In this document: one piece after another, positions 5,039-62,781 of the stretch | How positions within the stretch are numbered: the stretch's first letter is position 1 | How the letters are laid out: the number at the start of each line of letters is the position of its first letter | Origin: Escherichia coli | GTDB taxonomy: Bacteria > Pseudomonadota > Gammaproteobacteria > Enterobacterales > Enterobacteriaceae | Direction: 5' to 3' (one strand) | Assembly: GCF_013122565.1 (NCBI RefSeq) | Contig: NZ_CP053258.1 | DNA length: 64,000 bases | Notes under the pieces: model-generated | The model's database searches: none | The model's input: the letters and a program-made list of their open reading frames with translations, nothing else | What the model was told of the DNA's origin: nothing | Translations under genes and position numbers: made by a program

Positions 5039-6016
5039 TTATTCAACGAGTATTGGCGATAACCAGTACAACATCGCCAGCCATACGATAAATCCGCCAG
5101 TTAATAATACCCCTACACCACGGCCCGGTTGCGGGGAGCGCCGCCAGCACAGCAACGCAAAAATAATGCTCACCAGCAACATCACGCTGTAGTCACGACT
5201 GTACGCCAGTGGATCAATCTCTCCTGGCGTTATCAGCGCGGGTAAACCCAACACGATGACAATATTAAAAATGTTTGCGCCAATGATATTTCCGACAGCA
5301 ATGTCGTTTTCACCTTTGCGAACCCCCGCTATTGCGGTTGCCAGTTCCGGCAGGCTGGTTCCGATAGCAATTGCCGTCAGACCCATCGTCAACTCGCTGA
5401 TGGCAAAGTAATTCGCCAGCACCGTGGCGTTATCAACTACCATCCGCGTGGCCACTGGCATGATGATAAGCGCAATGCCGAGCCATAAAAACGCGACGGG
5501 CAATCCGCCGTCACGCGGCAGCTCTGCAAGCTGCTCTCTGGTCAGGCTGTCAGTCCCCTGACGTTCAGCCTGACGTGCAATTTTAACAATGAACAGCAGC
5601 CATAGCACAGCCAGAAAGAGGAGAAAGATACCATCGCTGCGACTAAGTTGTCCGTCATAGAGTACGGAACCGGCCACCACGCTGACCAACAACATTAAGG
5701 GTAATTCACGGCGCAGAACATCGGAATGGACGGTAAAAGGACGAACCAGCGCAGCCAGACCGAGGATCAGCAATATATTGATAATGTTTGAGCCGAGGGC
5801 TGTACCAACGGCTAAATCACGTTGTTCGTGCAGTGATGCGGCAAGCGAGACGATGATTTCTGGTAACGATGTACCAATACTGACCACCGTCATGCCGATG
5901 ATCAGCGGCGGGATGCCAAAGGTTCGGCAAAGAATAGACGCGGCAAAAACCAGGCGGTCGGCACTGTAAACGACCAAAAGTAAACCAACAATTAACAGTG
6001 CCGTAGCTAAAAGCAT
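5039..6016 (-). CDS. yrbG: Putative Na+/Ca2+ exchanger family inner membrane protein
   Basis: 325 aa polytopic ORF with two GTSLPE alpha-repeat motifs. Confidence 0.93.
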   Translation of the reverse strand: MLLATALLIVGLLLVVYSADRLVFAASILCRTFGIPPLIIGMTVVSIGTSLPEIIVSLAASLHEQRDLAVGTALGSNIINILLILGLAALVRPFTVHSDVLRRELPLMLLVSVVAGSVLYDGQLSRSDGIFLLFLAVLWLLFIVKIARQAERQGTDSLTREQLAELPRDGGLPVAFLWLGIALIIMPVATRMVVDNATVLANYFAISELTMGLTAIAIGTSLPELATAIAGVRKGENDIAVGNIIGANIFNIVIVLGLPALITPGEIDPLAYSRDYSVMLLVSIIFALLCWRRSPQPGRGVGVLLTGGFIVWLAMLYWLSPILVE

Positions 6017-6225: not shown

Positions 6226-7825
<1,600 letters not shown>

Positions 7826-7829
7826 GTTC

Positions 7830-8381
7830 ATGCAAACGAAAAAAAATGAAATTTGGGTGGGTATCTTTTTATTAGCAGCACTGCTGGCGGCGCTGTTTGT
7901 TTGCCTGAAGGCGGCGAACGTGACGTCAATACGTACTGAACCGACCTACACGCTTTATGCGACGTTCGATAACATTGGCGGCCTGAAAGCGCGCTCTCCG
8001 GTCAGCATTGGTGGTGTTGTTGTGGGCCGGGTGGCGGATATTACGCTGGACCCGAAAACCTATCTGCCACGCGTAACACTGGAAATTGAACAACGTTATA
8101 ACCACATTCCTGATACCAGTTCGCTGAGCATTCGTACTTCTGGCCTGCTGGGGGAACAATATCTGGCATTAAACGTTGGTTTTGAAGACCCGGAACTGGG
8201 GACTGCTATCCTGAAGGATGGCGATACAATTCAGGACACCAAGTCTGCGATGGTGCTGGAAGATCTCATTGGTCAGTTCCTTTACGGTAGTAAAGGCGAT
8301 GACAATAAGAATAGTGGCGATGCGCCAGCTGCTGCGCCAGGTAATAATGAAACCACTGAACCTGTGGGTACAACGAAATAA
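7830..8381 (+). CDS. mlaD: MCE-domain phospholipid-binding protein MlaD
   Basis: ORF 7815..8381 trimmed to Met of MQTKKNEIWVGIFLL. Confidence 0.93.
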   Translation: MQTKKNEIWVGIFLLAALLAALFVCLKAANVTSIRTEPTYTLYATFDNIGGLKARSPVSIGGVVVGRVADITLDPKTYLPRVTLEIEQRYNHIPDTSSLSIRTSGLLGEQYLALNVGFEDPELGTAILKDGDTIQDTKSAMVLEDLIGQFLYGSKGDDNKNSGDAPAAAPGNNETTEPVGTTK

Positions 8382-9796: not shown

Positions 9797-11056
<1,260 letters not shown>

Positions 11057-15732: not shown

Positions 15733-15832
15733 AGCCTGATGCGCTACGCTTATCAGGCCTACAAGAGAATTGCAATATGTTGAATTTGCACGATTTTGTA
15801 GGCCGGATAAGGCGTTCACGCCGCATCCGGCA
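15733..15832. repeat. REP/BIME palindromic elements in obgE-dacB intergenic region
   Basis: GCCTGATGCGCTACGCTTATCAGGCCTAC and GTAGGCCGGATAAGGCGTTCACGCCGCATCCGGCA match the E. coli REP consensus. Confidence 0.8.
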
Positions 15833-32966: not shown

Positions 32967-33036
32967 GCGGGATAAGGCGTTTACGCCGCATCCGGCATGG
33001 ATTGCATGATGCGACGCTGGCGCGTCTTATCAGGCC
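32967..33036. repeat. REP palindromes in infB-rbfA intergenic region
   Basis: GCGGGATAAGGCGTTTACGCCGCATCCGGCA and GATGCGACGCTGGCGCGTCTTATCAGGCC. Confidence 0.75.
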
Positions 33037-33074
33037 AACGTGAACAGCCCTTCCACCTGAAATTAATTTTTAAA

Positions 33075-38431: not shown

Positions 38432-40321
38432 ATGGCTGAATTCGAAACCACTTTTGCAGATCTGGGCCTGAAGGCTCCTATCCTTGAAGCCCTTAACGAT
38501 CTGGGTTACGAAAAACCATCTCCAATTCAGGCAGAGTGTATTCCACATCTGCTGAATGGCCGCGACGTTCTGGGTATGGCCCAGACGGGGAGCGGAAAAA
38601 CTGCAGCATTCTCTTTACCTCTGCTGCAGAATCTTGATCCTGAGCTGAAAGCACCACAGATTCTGGTGCTGGCACCGACCCGCGAACTGGCGGTACAGGT
38701 TGCTGAAGCAATGACGGATTTCTCTAAACACATGCGCGGCGTAAACGTGGTTGCCCTGTACGGCGGCCAGCGTTATGACGTGCAATTACGCGCCCTGCGT
38801 CAGGGGCCGCAGATCGTTGTCGGTACTCCGGGCCGTCTGCTGGACCACCTGAAACGTGGCACTCTGGACCTCTCTAAACTGAGCGGCCTGGTTCTGGATG
38901 AAGCTGACGAAATGCTGCGCATGGGCTTCATCGAAGACGTTGAAACCATTATGGCGCAGATACCGGAAGGTCATCAGACCGCTCTGTTCTCTGCAACCAT
39001 GCCGGAAGCGATTCGTCGCATTACCCGCCGCTTTATGAAAGAGCCGCAGGAAGTGCGCATTCAGTCCAGCGTGACTACCCGTCCTGACATCAGCCAGAGC
39101 TACTGGACTGTCTGGGGTATGCGTAAAAACGAAGCACTGGTACGTTTCCTGGAAGCGGAAGATTTTGATGCGGCGATTATCTTCGTTCGTACCAAAAATG
39201 CGACTCTGGAAGTGGCTGAAGCTCTTGAGCGTAACGGCTACAACAGCGCCGCGCTGAACGGTGACATGAACCAGGCGCTGCGTGAGCAGACACTGGAACG
39301 CCTGAAAGATGGTCGTCTGGACATCCTGATTGCGACCGACGTTGCAGCCCGTGGCCTGGACGTTGAGCGTATCAGCCTTGTAGTTAACTACGATATCCCG
39401 ATGGATTCTGAGTCTTACGTTCACCGTATCGGTCGTACCGGTCGTGCGGGTCGTGCTGGCCGCGCGCTGCTGTTCGTTGAGAACCGCGAGCGTCGTCTGC
39501 TGCGCAACATTGAACGTACTATGAAGCTGACTATTCCGGAAGTAGAACTGCCGAACGCAGAACTGCTGGGCAAACGCCGTCTGGAAAAATTCGCCGCTAA
39601 AGTACAGCAGCAGCTGGAAAGCAGCGATCTGGATCAATACCGCGCACTGCTGAGCAAAATTCAGCCGACTGCAGAAGGTGAAGAGCTGGATCTCGAAACT
39701 CTGGCTGCGGCACTGCTGAAAATGGCACAGGGTGAACGTACTCTGATTGTTCCGCCTGATGCGCCGATGCGTCCGAAACGTGAATTCCGTGACCGTGATG
39801 ACCGTGGTCCGCGCGATCGTAACGACCGTGGCCCGCGTGGCGACCGTGAAGATCGTCCGCGTCGTGAACGTCGTGATGTTGGTGACATGCAGCTGTACCG
39901 CATTGAAGTGGGCCGCGATGATGGTGTTGAAGTTCGTCATATCGTTGGCGCGATTGCTAACGAAGGCGACATCAGCAGCCGTTACATCGGTAACATCAAG
40001 CTGTTTGCTTCTCACTCCACCATCGAACTGCCGAAAGGTATGCCGGGTGAAGTGCTGCAACACTTTACGCGTACTCGCATTCTCAACAAGCCGATGAATA
40101 TGCAGTTACTGGGCGATGCACAGCCGCATACTGGCGGAGAGCGTCGTGGCGGTGGTCGTGGTTTCGGTGGCGAGCGTCGTGAAGGTGGTCGTAACTTCAG
40201 CGGTGAACGCCGTGAAGGTGGTCGTGGTGATGGTCGCCGTTTTAGCGGTGAACGTCGTGAAGGCCGCGCTCCGCGTCGTGATGACTCTACCGGTCGTCGT
40301 CGTTTTGGTGGTGATGCGTAA
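38432..40321 (+). CDS. deaD: DEAD-box ATP-dependent RNA helicase DeaD/CsdA
   Basis: ORF 38366..40321 trimmed to ATG 38432 ([13 protein letters not shown]); motifs [17 protein letters not shown]-rich C-terminal tail. Confidence 0.95.
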
Positions 40322-59103: not shown

Positions 59104-59269
59104 TGTGTAATCCTCACCATAAAGTTGAATAATATAATCTTTTTAAATATATTATTGTTGCGATATTGTACTGATGTATTTATTAAGGTTTAGTTATCTC
59201 CTTTACCATTAAAGTACTCCCCGATATTAATCGGGAAGTACTTTGGGATAAATCATAAAAAACTAATGA

Positions 59270-60142
<873 letters not shown>

Positions 60143-61297
60143 TTATGCCTGCCACGGATGAATGATTACGCCTTGCACCACGCGGTTAACGGTGCCACTG
60201 GCTGATGGGGTATCCGGCGTATTGCCCATGTGCAGCGATTGCATCAGTGCAAACGTCTGGGCGTACATCAGAAAGCAAAATGCCTGTTCAACGTCGATAA
60301 AGTGACGGGATGGCGGCAGGATGATATGTGGACCGGCAGCGACGATGTCGGTGCTTTCCGCGGCGATGGCGATTACGCGCATTGCCTGGTTGTCACGGCG
60401 GAGTTCTGCCAGCAGATCAAGATCATACTGACGGGTGTAAAGGTGGCTGGAGACAAATACCACCACCAGCGTTTCGTTATCGACCAGCGATTTTGGGCCA
60501 TGACGGAATCCGGTTGGGGAATCATAAAAGGCCGCCAGTTTACCCGCCGTCAGTTCCAGCACTTTCAACGCCGACTCGCGTGCTGCGCCCTGTAAGCCAC
60601 CGCTGCCGAGATAAACGATCCTTTTCCACGGTGCGTAACCAAACACACCTTCGCTGAAATCGCCCAGTGAGGTCAGGATCGCCTGGCAACGATCCGCCAC
60701 GTCGCGGAAGGTTTGGCTGTTGACCGCCTCAGGTGCGAAAACCGCGAGGCAGCTGGCCATCATGGTGGTAATGCTGCTGGTCATCGCAAAGCCGCGATCG
60801 TGCGTTTCTGCGGGCATCAGCAGGGCAAACGCGTTGTCGCTGTTGATCGCGTTTTGGTAAAGAGCGCCCGCTTCGTTGCAAGTGATCGGCAGGTGATAGC
60901 ATTCTGGTACAAATTGATTTGCCAGTTCCACGGCAGCGACGCTTTCCGGGCTGTTGCCGGATCGACCGAAGGAGATCAACAACAGCGGATGAGCTGGATT
61001 CAGGTAGTCCATCGGATTAGTGACCAGATCGGTGGTCGGTACGGCGCTGAAGTTTTTACCGGTATGGCTGGCGAGCCACGGCGCGATGATGTCACCGATA
61101 AATGCCGAGGTTCCGGCTCCGGTCAGGATAATCCGCAGATTCTCTTTGCGCAGTAATGGTTCAAGGAAGTTATTGAGCGCGGAACGTAGCGCGTCGATGT
61201 TGGTGAGTGAACGGATCCATGCGCGAGGCTGATGGCGGATCTCTTCTTCAGTCCATGTACCGGTTGCGGCAGCAGCAGGGGTGTAATTTTCTGGCAT
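60143..61297 (-). CDS. agaS: SIS-domain sugar isomerase/deaminase AgaS
   Basis: 384 aa ORF with tandem SIS domains. Confidence 0.93.
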   Translation of the reverse strand: MPENYTPAAAATGTWTEEEIRHQPRAWIRSLTNIDALRSALNNFLEPLLRKENLRIILTGAGTSAFIGDIIAPWLASHTGKNFSAVPTTDLVTNPMDYLNPAHPLLLISFGRSGNSPESVAAVELANQFVPECYHLPITCNEAGALYQNAINSDNAFALLMPAETHDRGFAMTSSITTMMASCLAVFAPEAVNSQTFRDVADRCQAILTSLGDFSEGVFGYAPWKRIVYLGSGGLQGAARESALKVLELTAGKLAAFYDSPTGFRHGPKSLVDNETLVVVFVSSHLYTRQYDLDLLAELRRDNQAMRVIAIAAESTDIVAAGPHIILPPSRHFIDVEQAFCFLMYAQTFALMQSLHMGNTPDTPSASGTVNRVVQGVIIHPWQA

Positions 61298-61517
61298 AAC
61301 TCAATCCTTAGTCTGATGAACTTGACGTCGGGCGTTGTCGCTTTCACTTGCCTTTCGTTTCATTTCACTTGGTGATGTCTTTCGTTGATTAAAATCTATA
61401 GAAAAGAAACTGAAAGTTCAATGGAGAAAAAGGAAATAAAACGAAATCTGTGATCATTGAAAGAAAAGACAAGGGAAGATTAAAGAATTGCGTAATGACG
61501 TCGCTATGTTCACCGAT

Positions 61518-61574
61518 TGCCGGATGCGGCGTACCGTAGGTCAGATAAGACGCGTCAGCGTCGCATCCGACACC
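61518..61574. repeat. REP-like palindrome in agaS-agaA intergenic region
   Basis: TGCCGGATGCGGCGTACCGTAGGTCAGATAAGACGCGTCAGCGTCGCATCCGACACC. Confidence 0.55.
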
Positions 61575-61647
61575 GCTGCACAGATCAAAAAGAAAGAAAA
61601 AGAAAGGCCTTACGGGGGAAGTGAAGGCCCAATAATGGAGCAAACCA

Positions 61648-62781
61648 TCAAAACGAAGCTAATTGACCCTGAATCCAGATTTGTTGCACATGCAGCCCGC
61701 TATCCAGCGCAACGACGCTGGCGCGTTTGCCCGGTTTAAGCGATCCCAGAACACCATCAACACCCAGCATTCGCGCCGGATGCAGCGATGCCATATGAAT
61801 GGCTTCCGCAGGCGTTACGCCCGTCAACTCGACCATATTGCGCACTGCCGCATCAACAGACAGCGTACTGCCCGCCAGCCCACCGGACGCGGTACGGACA
61901 ACGCCACCGTGCATCTGCACTTCTTCGCCACATAACGTATAGCGACCATCCGGCATCCCGGCTGCCTGCATCGCGTCGGTGATCAGCACGATTCTCTCTT
62001 TCGCACAGCAACAACACAGCGACATCGCCGCCGGATGCACATGATGACCATCGGCTATCAGTTCCAGCCAGGCGCGCTTGTCCGTTAATCCCGCGCCAAC
62101 CATTCCCGGTTCGCGGTGATGTAAACCTGTCATCCCGTTATAGCAATGCACCAGGCCGTCGGCACCAGCATCAAACGCGGCGCGGGTTTGTTGCCAGGTC
62201 GCCGCGCTATGCCCCAGCATCACTCGTACATTTTGCTGTTTAAGATGGCGGATGGCCTGCAATGCCCCTTCTTTTTCCGGTGCCAGCGCTACCACGCGTA
62301 AGGTGTGCTGAGAAACGGCAATCAACTGATCCAGCTCGGCAATTTCAAGCTCGCGAAACAGCTCCGGCGGATGCGCGCCTTTATTCTGCGGCGTGAAGTA
62401 CGGTCCTTCGAGATAACTCCCCAGCACTTGCGCACCAGGCCCGCCGCGTTGGCAACGTTGAGCAATACGTTTCAGCACCGCATGAATGGTACTAAGCGGC
62501 GCGGTTACGGTGGTCGGTAACCAACTGCCGACACCTTCGCGTGCCTTGTGCATTGCCAGCTTGTCGAGTACATCCGGCGCGTCATCCATTACATCAACGC
62601 CCGCACCACCGTGTACATGGGTGTCGATGTAAGCGGGGCAGAGCAGTTCCGCATCGCGTTCAGTCACGCCCACTGGAATCGGTTCGATTGCTGCGATGAC
62701 ACCGTCAGCAATACGCAACTGATGGTCATCGAGCCATCCCTCTTCAGTCAGCAGCCTTCTGGCGCGCAGAACGTGTGTCAT
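61648..62781 (-). CDS. agaA: N-acetylgalactosamine-6-phosphate deacetylase, full length
   Basis: 377 aa ORF; amidohydrolase metal ligands (HVHGG region); full-length unlike the truncated K-12 allele. Confidence 0.9.
   Translation of the reverse strand: MTHVLRARRLLTEEGWLDDHQLRIADGVIAAIEPIPVGVTERDAELLCPAYIDTHVHGGAGVDVMDDAPDVLDKLAMHKAREGVGSWLPTTVTAPLSTIHAVLKRIAQRCQRGGPGAQVLGSYLEGPYFTPQNKGAHPPELFRELEIAELDQLIAVSQHTLRVVALAPEKEGALQAIRHLKQQNVRVMLGHSAATWQQTRAAFDAGADGLVHCYNGMTGLHHREPGMVGAGLTDKRAWLELIADGHHVHPAAMSLCCCCAKERIVLITDAMQAAGMPDGRYTLCGEEVQMHGGVVRTASGGLAGSTLSVDAAVRNMVELTGVTPAEAIHMASLHPARMLGVDGVLGSLKPGKRASVVALDSGLHVQQIWIQGQLASF

Follow-up and report, generated by a model that had tools for sequence, protein, structure and literature searches.

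The 350-bp agaA-agaS gap of an Escherichia coli aga cluster very probably joins two AgaR-controlled operons

Repressors of the DeoR/GlpR family are known to act through arrays of operators, as exemplified by the tandem operators of GlpR and the multi-operator looping of DeoR. For the GalNAc/GalN (aga) cluster of Escherichia coli, three promoters called PR, PZ and PS have been described, according to the passages of PMC3668189 that cite Ray & Larson 2004 (Mol Microbiol 51:813; PMID 14731281). The same passages state that PS is bound by AgaR and that a Ps-lacZ fusion was induced about 20-fold on GalNAc, and AgaR binding for K-12 is restated, with the same citation, in PMC4694137. By qRT-PCR, GalNAc induced agaA 32-fold versus 62-fold for agaS, and in a delta-agaR strain the corresponding values were 50-fold and 175-fold (PMC3668189). 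Overexpression of SlyA raised agaS-kbaY-agaBCDI transcripts 2.5-fold (PMC5797941), an effect that would be compatible with H-NS-type silencing of the AT-rich PS promoter. In BL21(DE3), kbaZ-agaVWEFA and agaS-kbaY-agaBCDI are separate operons with a gap of about 350 bp between them (PMC10101011). The second class of described elements relevant here are REP sequences, which in E. coli are defined by a GTAG preceding an imperfect palindrome with a mismatched stem (PMC8266576). One well-described case, REP325, attenuates read-through, acting as a terminator that depends in part on Rho, and renders the upstream mRNA more stable; more generally, REPs located in tandem gene pairs go along with upstream-biased expression, with effects that are variable and context-dependent (bioRxiv 10.64898/2026.03.23.713779).

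The window analysed here is the whole 64,000-nucleotide stretch of E. coli contig NZ_CP053258.1, and it contains an aga cluster in which agaA and agaS are both encoded on the minus strand. agaA (61648..62781) encodes a full-length GalNAc-6-P deacetylase and is the last gene of kbaZ-agaVWEFA, as indicated by its open reading frame, a TIGR00221 (N-acetylglucosamine-6-P deacetylase) match of 286 bits and annotation. agaS (60143..61297), the first gene of agaS-kbaY-agaBCDI, encodes GalN-6-P deaminase/isomerase based on its open reading frame, a TIGR02815 (agaS_fam) match of 629 bits and near-identical RefSeq loci. Between them, the open reading frames leave a non-coding gap of exactly 350 bp at 61298-61647, the length given in an earlier note on this DNA. 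That note had also described an AT-rich part beside agaS and a GC-rich palindrome, and both are borne out: GC content is 0.28-0.35 across 61340-61489 versus 0.65 across 61520-61579, with the inverted repeat arms (14 nt, 86% complementary) lying at 61518-61531 and 61559-61572. The agaA-agaS gap is present in 5,307 of 5,426 complete E. coli genomes, with RefSeq names of agaS and nagA/agaA for the flanking genes and the same synteny. A near-identical RefSeq genome carries the complete cluster, namely agaR, kbaZ-agaV-W-E-F-A and agaS-kbaY-agaB-C-D-I. K-12, by contrast, has a known 2.3-kb deletion, and its RefSeq annotation lists agaW and agaA as pseudogenes with agaA truncated, whereas agaW, agaE, agaF and agaA are intact in this strain, as in E. 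coli C, B and O157.

Two statements of the earlier note about the setting of the gap need to be revised. It had placed the gap inside a single operon; the gap is instead the boundary between two published operons, kbaZ-agaVWEFA and agaS-kbaY-agaBCDI, so that an annotation of the aga cluster should list two operons in addition to agaR. The operon had further been called otherwise tightly packed, yet a second non-coding gap of 166 bp, which is very AT-rich, separates kbaY from agaB within the agaS operon (59104-59269). This second gap contains a minus-strand hairpin at 59211-59244 (AAAGTACTTCCCGAT-TAAT-ATCGGGGAGTACTTT) with nearly perfect 15-bp arms, located about 25 nt past the kbaY stop codon and lacking a T-tract. 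It might be related to the distance-dependent polarity on agaBCD described in PMC3668189.

The existence of PS rests on the literature, while the hexamer and box positions reported here were mapped from consensus and conservation. A sigma-70 and terminator scan with a threshold of 9/12 returned no promoter in the gap, and its only terminator match was internal to the REP. These thresholds were too strict to recover PS, and a custom sigma-70 scan combined with folding was used instead. The sole candidate scoring at least 8/12 on the agaS strand within the gap is TTGAAC-17-TAGATT, which is predicted to be the PS core promoter (61393..61421, minus strand): a -35 hexamer TTGAAC at 61421-61416, a 17-nt spacer and a -10 hexamer TAGATT at 61398-61393, with the start of transcription predicted near 61386. 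At 8/12, the candidate hexamers are weak. The spacer is itself an array of TTTC repeats (CTTTCAGTTTCTTTTC, 61416-61401), and the block as a whole, ATTGAACTTTCGNTTTCTTTNCTATAGATTT, is conserved among about 68 distinct Enterobacterales sequences. A Shine-Dalgarno sequence AAGGA (61305..61309, minus strand) lies 7 nt upstream of the agaS ATG and is invariant in a cross-genus alignment of 20 sequences. A literature search for reports of the agaS start site found none, and searching paper texts for the box sequences gave irrelevant matches only.

Candidate AgaR operators were located with the consensus WRMMTTTCRTTTYRTTTYNYTTKK, which we take to be that of Ray & Larson 2004. A search of the whole window with this consensus would be expected to give 0.1 matches by chance, and the consensus used is supported by the finding of a match with zero mismatches. 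This match, box 1 (61349..61372, plus strand; with an exact core, TTTCGTTTCATTTC, at 61353-61366), is antisense to agaS and falls into the predicted 5' UTR at about +14 to +37; its sequence GAAAYRAAACGAAAG is invariant across genera. Box 2 (61427..61450, minus strand) has 2 mismatches to the consensus and contains an exact core at 61433-61446 (TTTCGTTTTATTTC) that is near-invariant across genera. Counted from the agaS start it lies at -153..-130, which places it a short distance upstream of the -35 hexamer. The AgaR core TTTCNTTTNNTTTC has 4 exact matches in the 64-kb window versus 0.04 expected, and 3 of them are in the agaA-agaS gap. When one full aga cluster was searched with up to 1 mismatch allowed, core matches were confined to the agaA-agaS gap and the divergent region between kbaZ and agaR. 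The only core-like match of the window outside the aga gap (TTTCATTTTTTTTC, 7832-7855, minus strand) has 3 mismatches to the full consensus, sits where the open reading frames 7043-7825 and 7815-8381 join and is probably a chance T-rich run.

A heptamer GATCACA (61449..61455, minus strand) abuts box 2 and is shared by most of the 68 sequences. Its assignment as a CRP half-site, which it resembles, is uncertain; of TGTGA-N6-TCACA, only the TCACA half is kept across genera. A full CRP site at 61449-64 has 3 mismatches, a level at which matches in the pattern search were not above chance (177 found versus 227 expected).

The comparison across genera is based on an AgaS scan of one genome per species, which returned 71 loci. 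With agaA adjacent, the agaA-agaS gap of Escherichia loci measures 343-350 bp, compared with 237-308 bp in other genera. Boxes 1 and 2 keep fixed offsets from the agaS start (-75..-52 and -153..-130, respectively), and a block with the order GATCACA, TTTCGTTTTATTTC, ATTGAAC, TTTCGNTTTCTTT, TATAGATTT, GAAAYRAAACGAAAG, AAGGA is conserved among about 68 distinct sequences that range from Escherichia to Yersinia and Buttiauxella; the predicted hexamers and candidate boxes agree with this phylogenetic footprint. In Escherichia sp. MOD1-EC7003, a 7-bp deletion removes part of GATCACA together with the 5' edge of box 2, resulting in a gap of 343 bp. In the E. albertii type strain NBRC 107761 (locus 142-2825), the part of the gap with the hairpin and the REP has given way to an insert of about 2.7 kb, on whose minus strand open reading frames encode a DUF302 protein and a solute-binding protein (PF13531). 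The promoter block proximal to agaS is retained there.

The GC-rich palindrome is a genuine REP unit plus the remnant of a second one. The REP-like character proposed in the earlier note thus holds for a complete 36-nt, z2-like unit (61536..61571, minus strand) that has 3 mismatches to the 36-nt REP consensus, with 0 matches expected; as a positive control, the six REP325 units were retrieved with this pattern. Its sense is that of the agaA and agaS mRNAs, and it carries GTAG at 61536-61539 (plus strand); on the minus strand this reads CTAC, at the 3' terminus of the match. It is extragenic, similar in sequence to the REP family and forms a mismatched stem-loop within the 20-50-nt range: a 41-nt fold, in which each side has one internal mismatch, reaches -19.6 kcal/mol (z = -4.46; none of 200 shuffles was as stable). 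The remnant is a 13-nt head (GCCGGATGCGGCG, 61519..61531, plus strand) of a second, inverted REP, which pairs with the outer arm of the full unit and lacks the GTAG tetranucleotide. The window allele therefore consists of one REP and a 13-nt head and is not a BIME in the sense of two complete inverted REPs. When the REP part is taken by itself, it matches one further place in E. coli genomes. A search of Rfam gave nothing above the gathering score; the only match, naRNA4 (28 bits, E = 0.007, gathering threshold 59.5), is explained by the REP-derived nature of naRNA4. No REP feature is annotated at the aga locus in the K-12 RefSeq record NC_000913.3, and since none is annotated even at REP325, this absence is uninformative. 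Elsewhere in the window, an exact y-type consensus is found at 15798-15831, an inverted pair resembling a BIME occupies 32984-32996 and 33004-33039, and 10686-10698 and 39754-39766 are isolated REP heads. A REP-head-like 13-mer with 1 mismatch inside the agaA coding sequence (GCCGGATGCAGCG, 61775-61787) is most likely due to chance.

Two structural alleles of the REP region exist in E. coli (window 61475-61535 versus 5738-5800 of the K-12 locus extract). The window type combines the 13-nt REP remnant with about 29 nt of unique sequence, while the K-12 type has a full second REP and a linker, yielding two REP-length units, the second with a degenerate GTAG (GCAA). The K-12 two-REP region folds at -40.6 kcal/mol. 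Alignment places the two-REP allele in K-12, strain 720632 and the N56/MS20658 variant, and O157:H7 is matched by the K-12-type segment. Of the 5,426 genomes, 2,846 carry the window type and 1,387 the exact K-12 type; most of the remaining genomes probably have the N56/MS20658 variant. An inversion between the two alleles was considered and ruled out on reading the sequences; the difference is a complex replacement of equal length, which is why both gaps measure 350 bp. The window type is also found in two further Escherichia species and in E. whittamii and is therefore probably ancestral. REP heads were absent from the agaA-agaS gap of every non-Escherichia genus examined, where the corresponding position is a variable AT-rich spacer. 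Its restriction to one lineage and its polymorphism speak against the REP as a core component of aga regulation. The two alleles could serve as a natural pair for testing REP effects on read-through.

Directly downstream of agaA lies a terminator-like hairpin, GGGCCTT...AAGGCCT (61605..61630, minus strand), which begins 17 nt past the agaA stop codon and folds at -10.2 kcal/mol. It was missed by the terminator scan because of an internal mismatch and its loop size. In E. coli the fold is modest (z = -1.8) and the stem is weaker than those of other genera. RNAalifold analysis of 51 sequences revealed compensatory double changes in 8 of 8 hairpin pairs, with stem pairs such as GGCCTTCG/CGAAGGCC, GGTTTGTGG/CCACAAACC, GTCTGTCG/CGACAGAC and CCCTGCG/CGCAGGG among the 51 distinct sequences. 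This covariation speaks for an RNA structure, the simplest candidate being a terminator for kbaZ-agaVWEFA. The hairpin is directly followed by the U-rich UUUCUUUUUCUUUCUUUUU, giving the combination of GC-rich stem and U-tract expected of an intrinsic terminator, and the element as a whole looks like one. In most non-Escherichia genera, the agaA stop codon is immediately followed by a conserved CCCTTTCATTGTGT, one more CTTTC unit, versus TGGTTTGCTCC in Escherichia.

The T/C-rich tract that would form the U-tract of such a terminator, CCTTTCTTTTTCTTTCTTTTT (61586..61609, minus strand), is at the same time a candidate AgaR box 3, with 3 mismatches to the full consensus and a core at 61592-61605 that is exact to TTTCNTTTNNTTTC. 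Within it, CCTTTCTTTTYCTTTC is at least 90% conserved across the 51 sequences, including the C residues that interrupt the U-tract, while the adjacent stem varies. This pattern counts against a plain U-tract, which would not predict the conserved C's. Loci that carry agaF instead of agaA upstream keep both the hairpin and the tract. The distance between box 3 and box 2 is 47 bp in Enterobacter, 100-103 bp in most genera and 159 bp in Escherichia, with one outlier at 62 bp; these classes differ by about 55-57 bp, or approximately five helical turns, with a jitter of 1-2 bp. Helical phasing of box 3 relative to box 2 was rejected as a formal argument because there are too few independent spacing classes for significance.

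Taken together, we are confident that this gap joins two AgaR-controlled operons of the GalNAc/GalN (aga) cluster, comprising a putative terminator, a REP and the PS promoter. kbaZ-agaVWEFA ends with agaA, and, as judged from structure and covariation, the hairpin and U-rich tract (61630-61586) would terminate or 3'-protect most of its transcript. The REP and its remnant (61571-61519) would represent a genomic repeat gained in the Escherichia lineage that fills the spacer. By analogy, its contribution may at most be secondary, attenuating or stabilising RNA that reads through from agaA. The agaS-proximal 170 bp or so are PS for agaS-kbaY-agaBCDI, with arrays of TTTC pentamers flanking and overlapping the predicted core: box 2 upstream of the -35, a further array between the hexamers and the inverted box 1 in the 5' UTR. 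The DeoR-family repressor AgaR would bind these arrays and hold back transcription as long as neither GalNAc nor GalN is available; binding and induction are taken from the literature. The difference in expression between the two halves of the cluster would then result mainly from the separate promoters PZ and PS, and RNA processing is not needed to explain it.

The earlier note had named two of these elements, the promoter and the REP, correctly, and had overlooked the conserved TTTC-repeat AgaR boxes as well as the covarying hairpin after agaA. Its proposed internal promoter for agaS-kbaY-agaBCDI corresponds to the published PS, which PMC3668189 describes as AgaR-bound and induced about 20-fold by GalNAc; the operon limits are those of PMC10101011. 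The agaS-proximal segment of about 170 bp is therefore already known as the PS promoter and AgaR operator region. The overall layout of operon end, REP and repressor-controlled promoter is a textbook one and matters little beyond correct annotation, for which it should be noted that the conserved regulatory part comprises the proximal 170 bp and the hairpin/T-tract by agaA, not the REP.

A different reading would put the REP, or the K-12-type two-REP BIME, at the centre of regulation, as a dual 3'-UTR element that stabilises kbaZ-agaVWEFA mRNA and attenuates read-through into agaS, so that the ratio of the two halves would be set post-transcriptionally. The aga REP is genuine, mRNA-sense and oriented like the REP325 units relative to yjdM-yjdN, and its hairpin is as stable as the values given above indicate for one unit and for the two-REP region; by likeness to REP325, with its reported dual activity, and to the upstream bias reported for tandem pairs, a role as mRNA stabiliser or attenuator of read-through is plausible. 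We consider it unlikely, however, that this is the key regulatory element. REP heads are missing from other genera even though the rest of the region is conserved there, and the REP varies within E. coli itself, where one REP plus a remnant is seen in 2,846 of 5,426 genomes and two REPs in most others. As for its position, it lies downstream of the hairpin/T-tract and more than 95 bp upstream of the predicted -35. It is therefore not transcribed from PS, RNA reading through from agaA is all that it can act on, and with a conserved terminator-like hairpin preceding it most agaA transcripts may never contain it. The preprint on REP325 itself stresses how context-dependent such effects are (bioRxiv 10.64898/2026.03.23.713779). 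That the gap instead hides a small gene, encoding either a protein or a known small RNA, has a negligible chance of being correct. Two mechanical open reading frames span the gap (61389-61643, minus strand, 84 aa; 61488-61739, plus strand, 83 aa) and there is the weak Rfam match to naRNA4, but neither frame matches any NCBIfam family, both cross the REP and spacer, which other genera lack or have replaced and which differ from one E. coli allele to the other, and the naRNA4 score, far below its gathering threshold, reflects the REP origin of that family. Both frames were rejected as genes, given the missing family match and a reading frame that is not conserved across genera.

The element after agaA allows a further alternative, in which its main role would not be termination: the tract would serve AgaR as a distal operator that loops to the proximal boxes, and the hairpin would act in processing or 3' protection. 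The exact match to an AgaR core that is otherwise found only in AgaR-controlled regions, the conservation of the C positions next to a freely varying stem, the persistence of the tract with agaF rather than agaA upstream and the roughly five-turn steps in spacing all speak for it. The tract nevertheless has at least 3 mismatches to the full 24-nt consensus, a GC-rich hairpin followed by a T-rich run is what any intrinsic terminator looks like, and the spacing argument, with three classes, its jitter and the one outlier, is not statistically significant. Moreover, because a co-oriented gene ends at the hairpin and tract in every case, terminator and operator roles are inseparable. We regard this alternative as doubtful, if worth keeping in mind. 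A combined version, in which the tract would serve both as the U-tract of the agaA terminator at the RNA level and as a third, distal AgaR operator looping to the proximal boxes at the DNA level, appears rather improbable. If true, the spacer between distal and proximal sites would be expected to change only in steps of about five helical turns, and both the tolerated insertion of a REP and the equal 350-bp length of two unrelated REP alleles would be explained. One sequence acting as terminator tail and operator would still be a modest finding; such a dual role of 61586-61609 may be the sole remaining reading that adds anything new.

With the junction of two AgaR-controlled operons as the preferred interpretation, the locus can be compared with described systems element by element. 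Its closest counterpart is the PS/AgaR operator region of the E. coli aga/gam regulon, with which it shares the locus, the downstream operon and boxes that follow the AgaR consensus. Relative to PS of K-12, the proximal 170 bp are identical except for a few substitutions and nothing functional differs; the two strains are distinguished by the full-length cluster here versus the 2.3-kb deletion in K-12 and by a different REP allele, located more than 100 bp upstream of the promoter. As in the operator arrays of the DeoR/GlpR family, short repeats extend over more than 200 bp, overlap and flank the core promoter and include a putative distal site, the AgaR boxes being built from TTTC pentamers. 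The hairpin after agaA resembles intrinsic terminators in consisting of a GC-rich stem followed by a U-rich tract, in this case with a covarying stem that begins 17 nt past the stop codon; it departs from the typical form in that the U-tract is broken by conserved C residues and the E. coli stem is weaker than those of other genera. With the E. coli REP/BIME elements (y, z1, z2; substrates of RAYT/TnpA-REP), the aga REP has in common the GTAG, the imperfect 36-nt palindrome, the extragenic location and the occurrence in multiple copies, and its 3 mismatches to the REP consensus are located in the outer stem. Finally, like REP325 between yjdM and yjdN, the aga REP is mRNA-sense and positioned between co-oriented genes, but where REP325 comprises six tandem units, the aga element consists of one unit and a 13-nt remnant and, unlike REP325, has a conserved hairpin/T-tract upstream and an independent promoter downstream.
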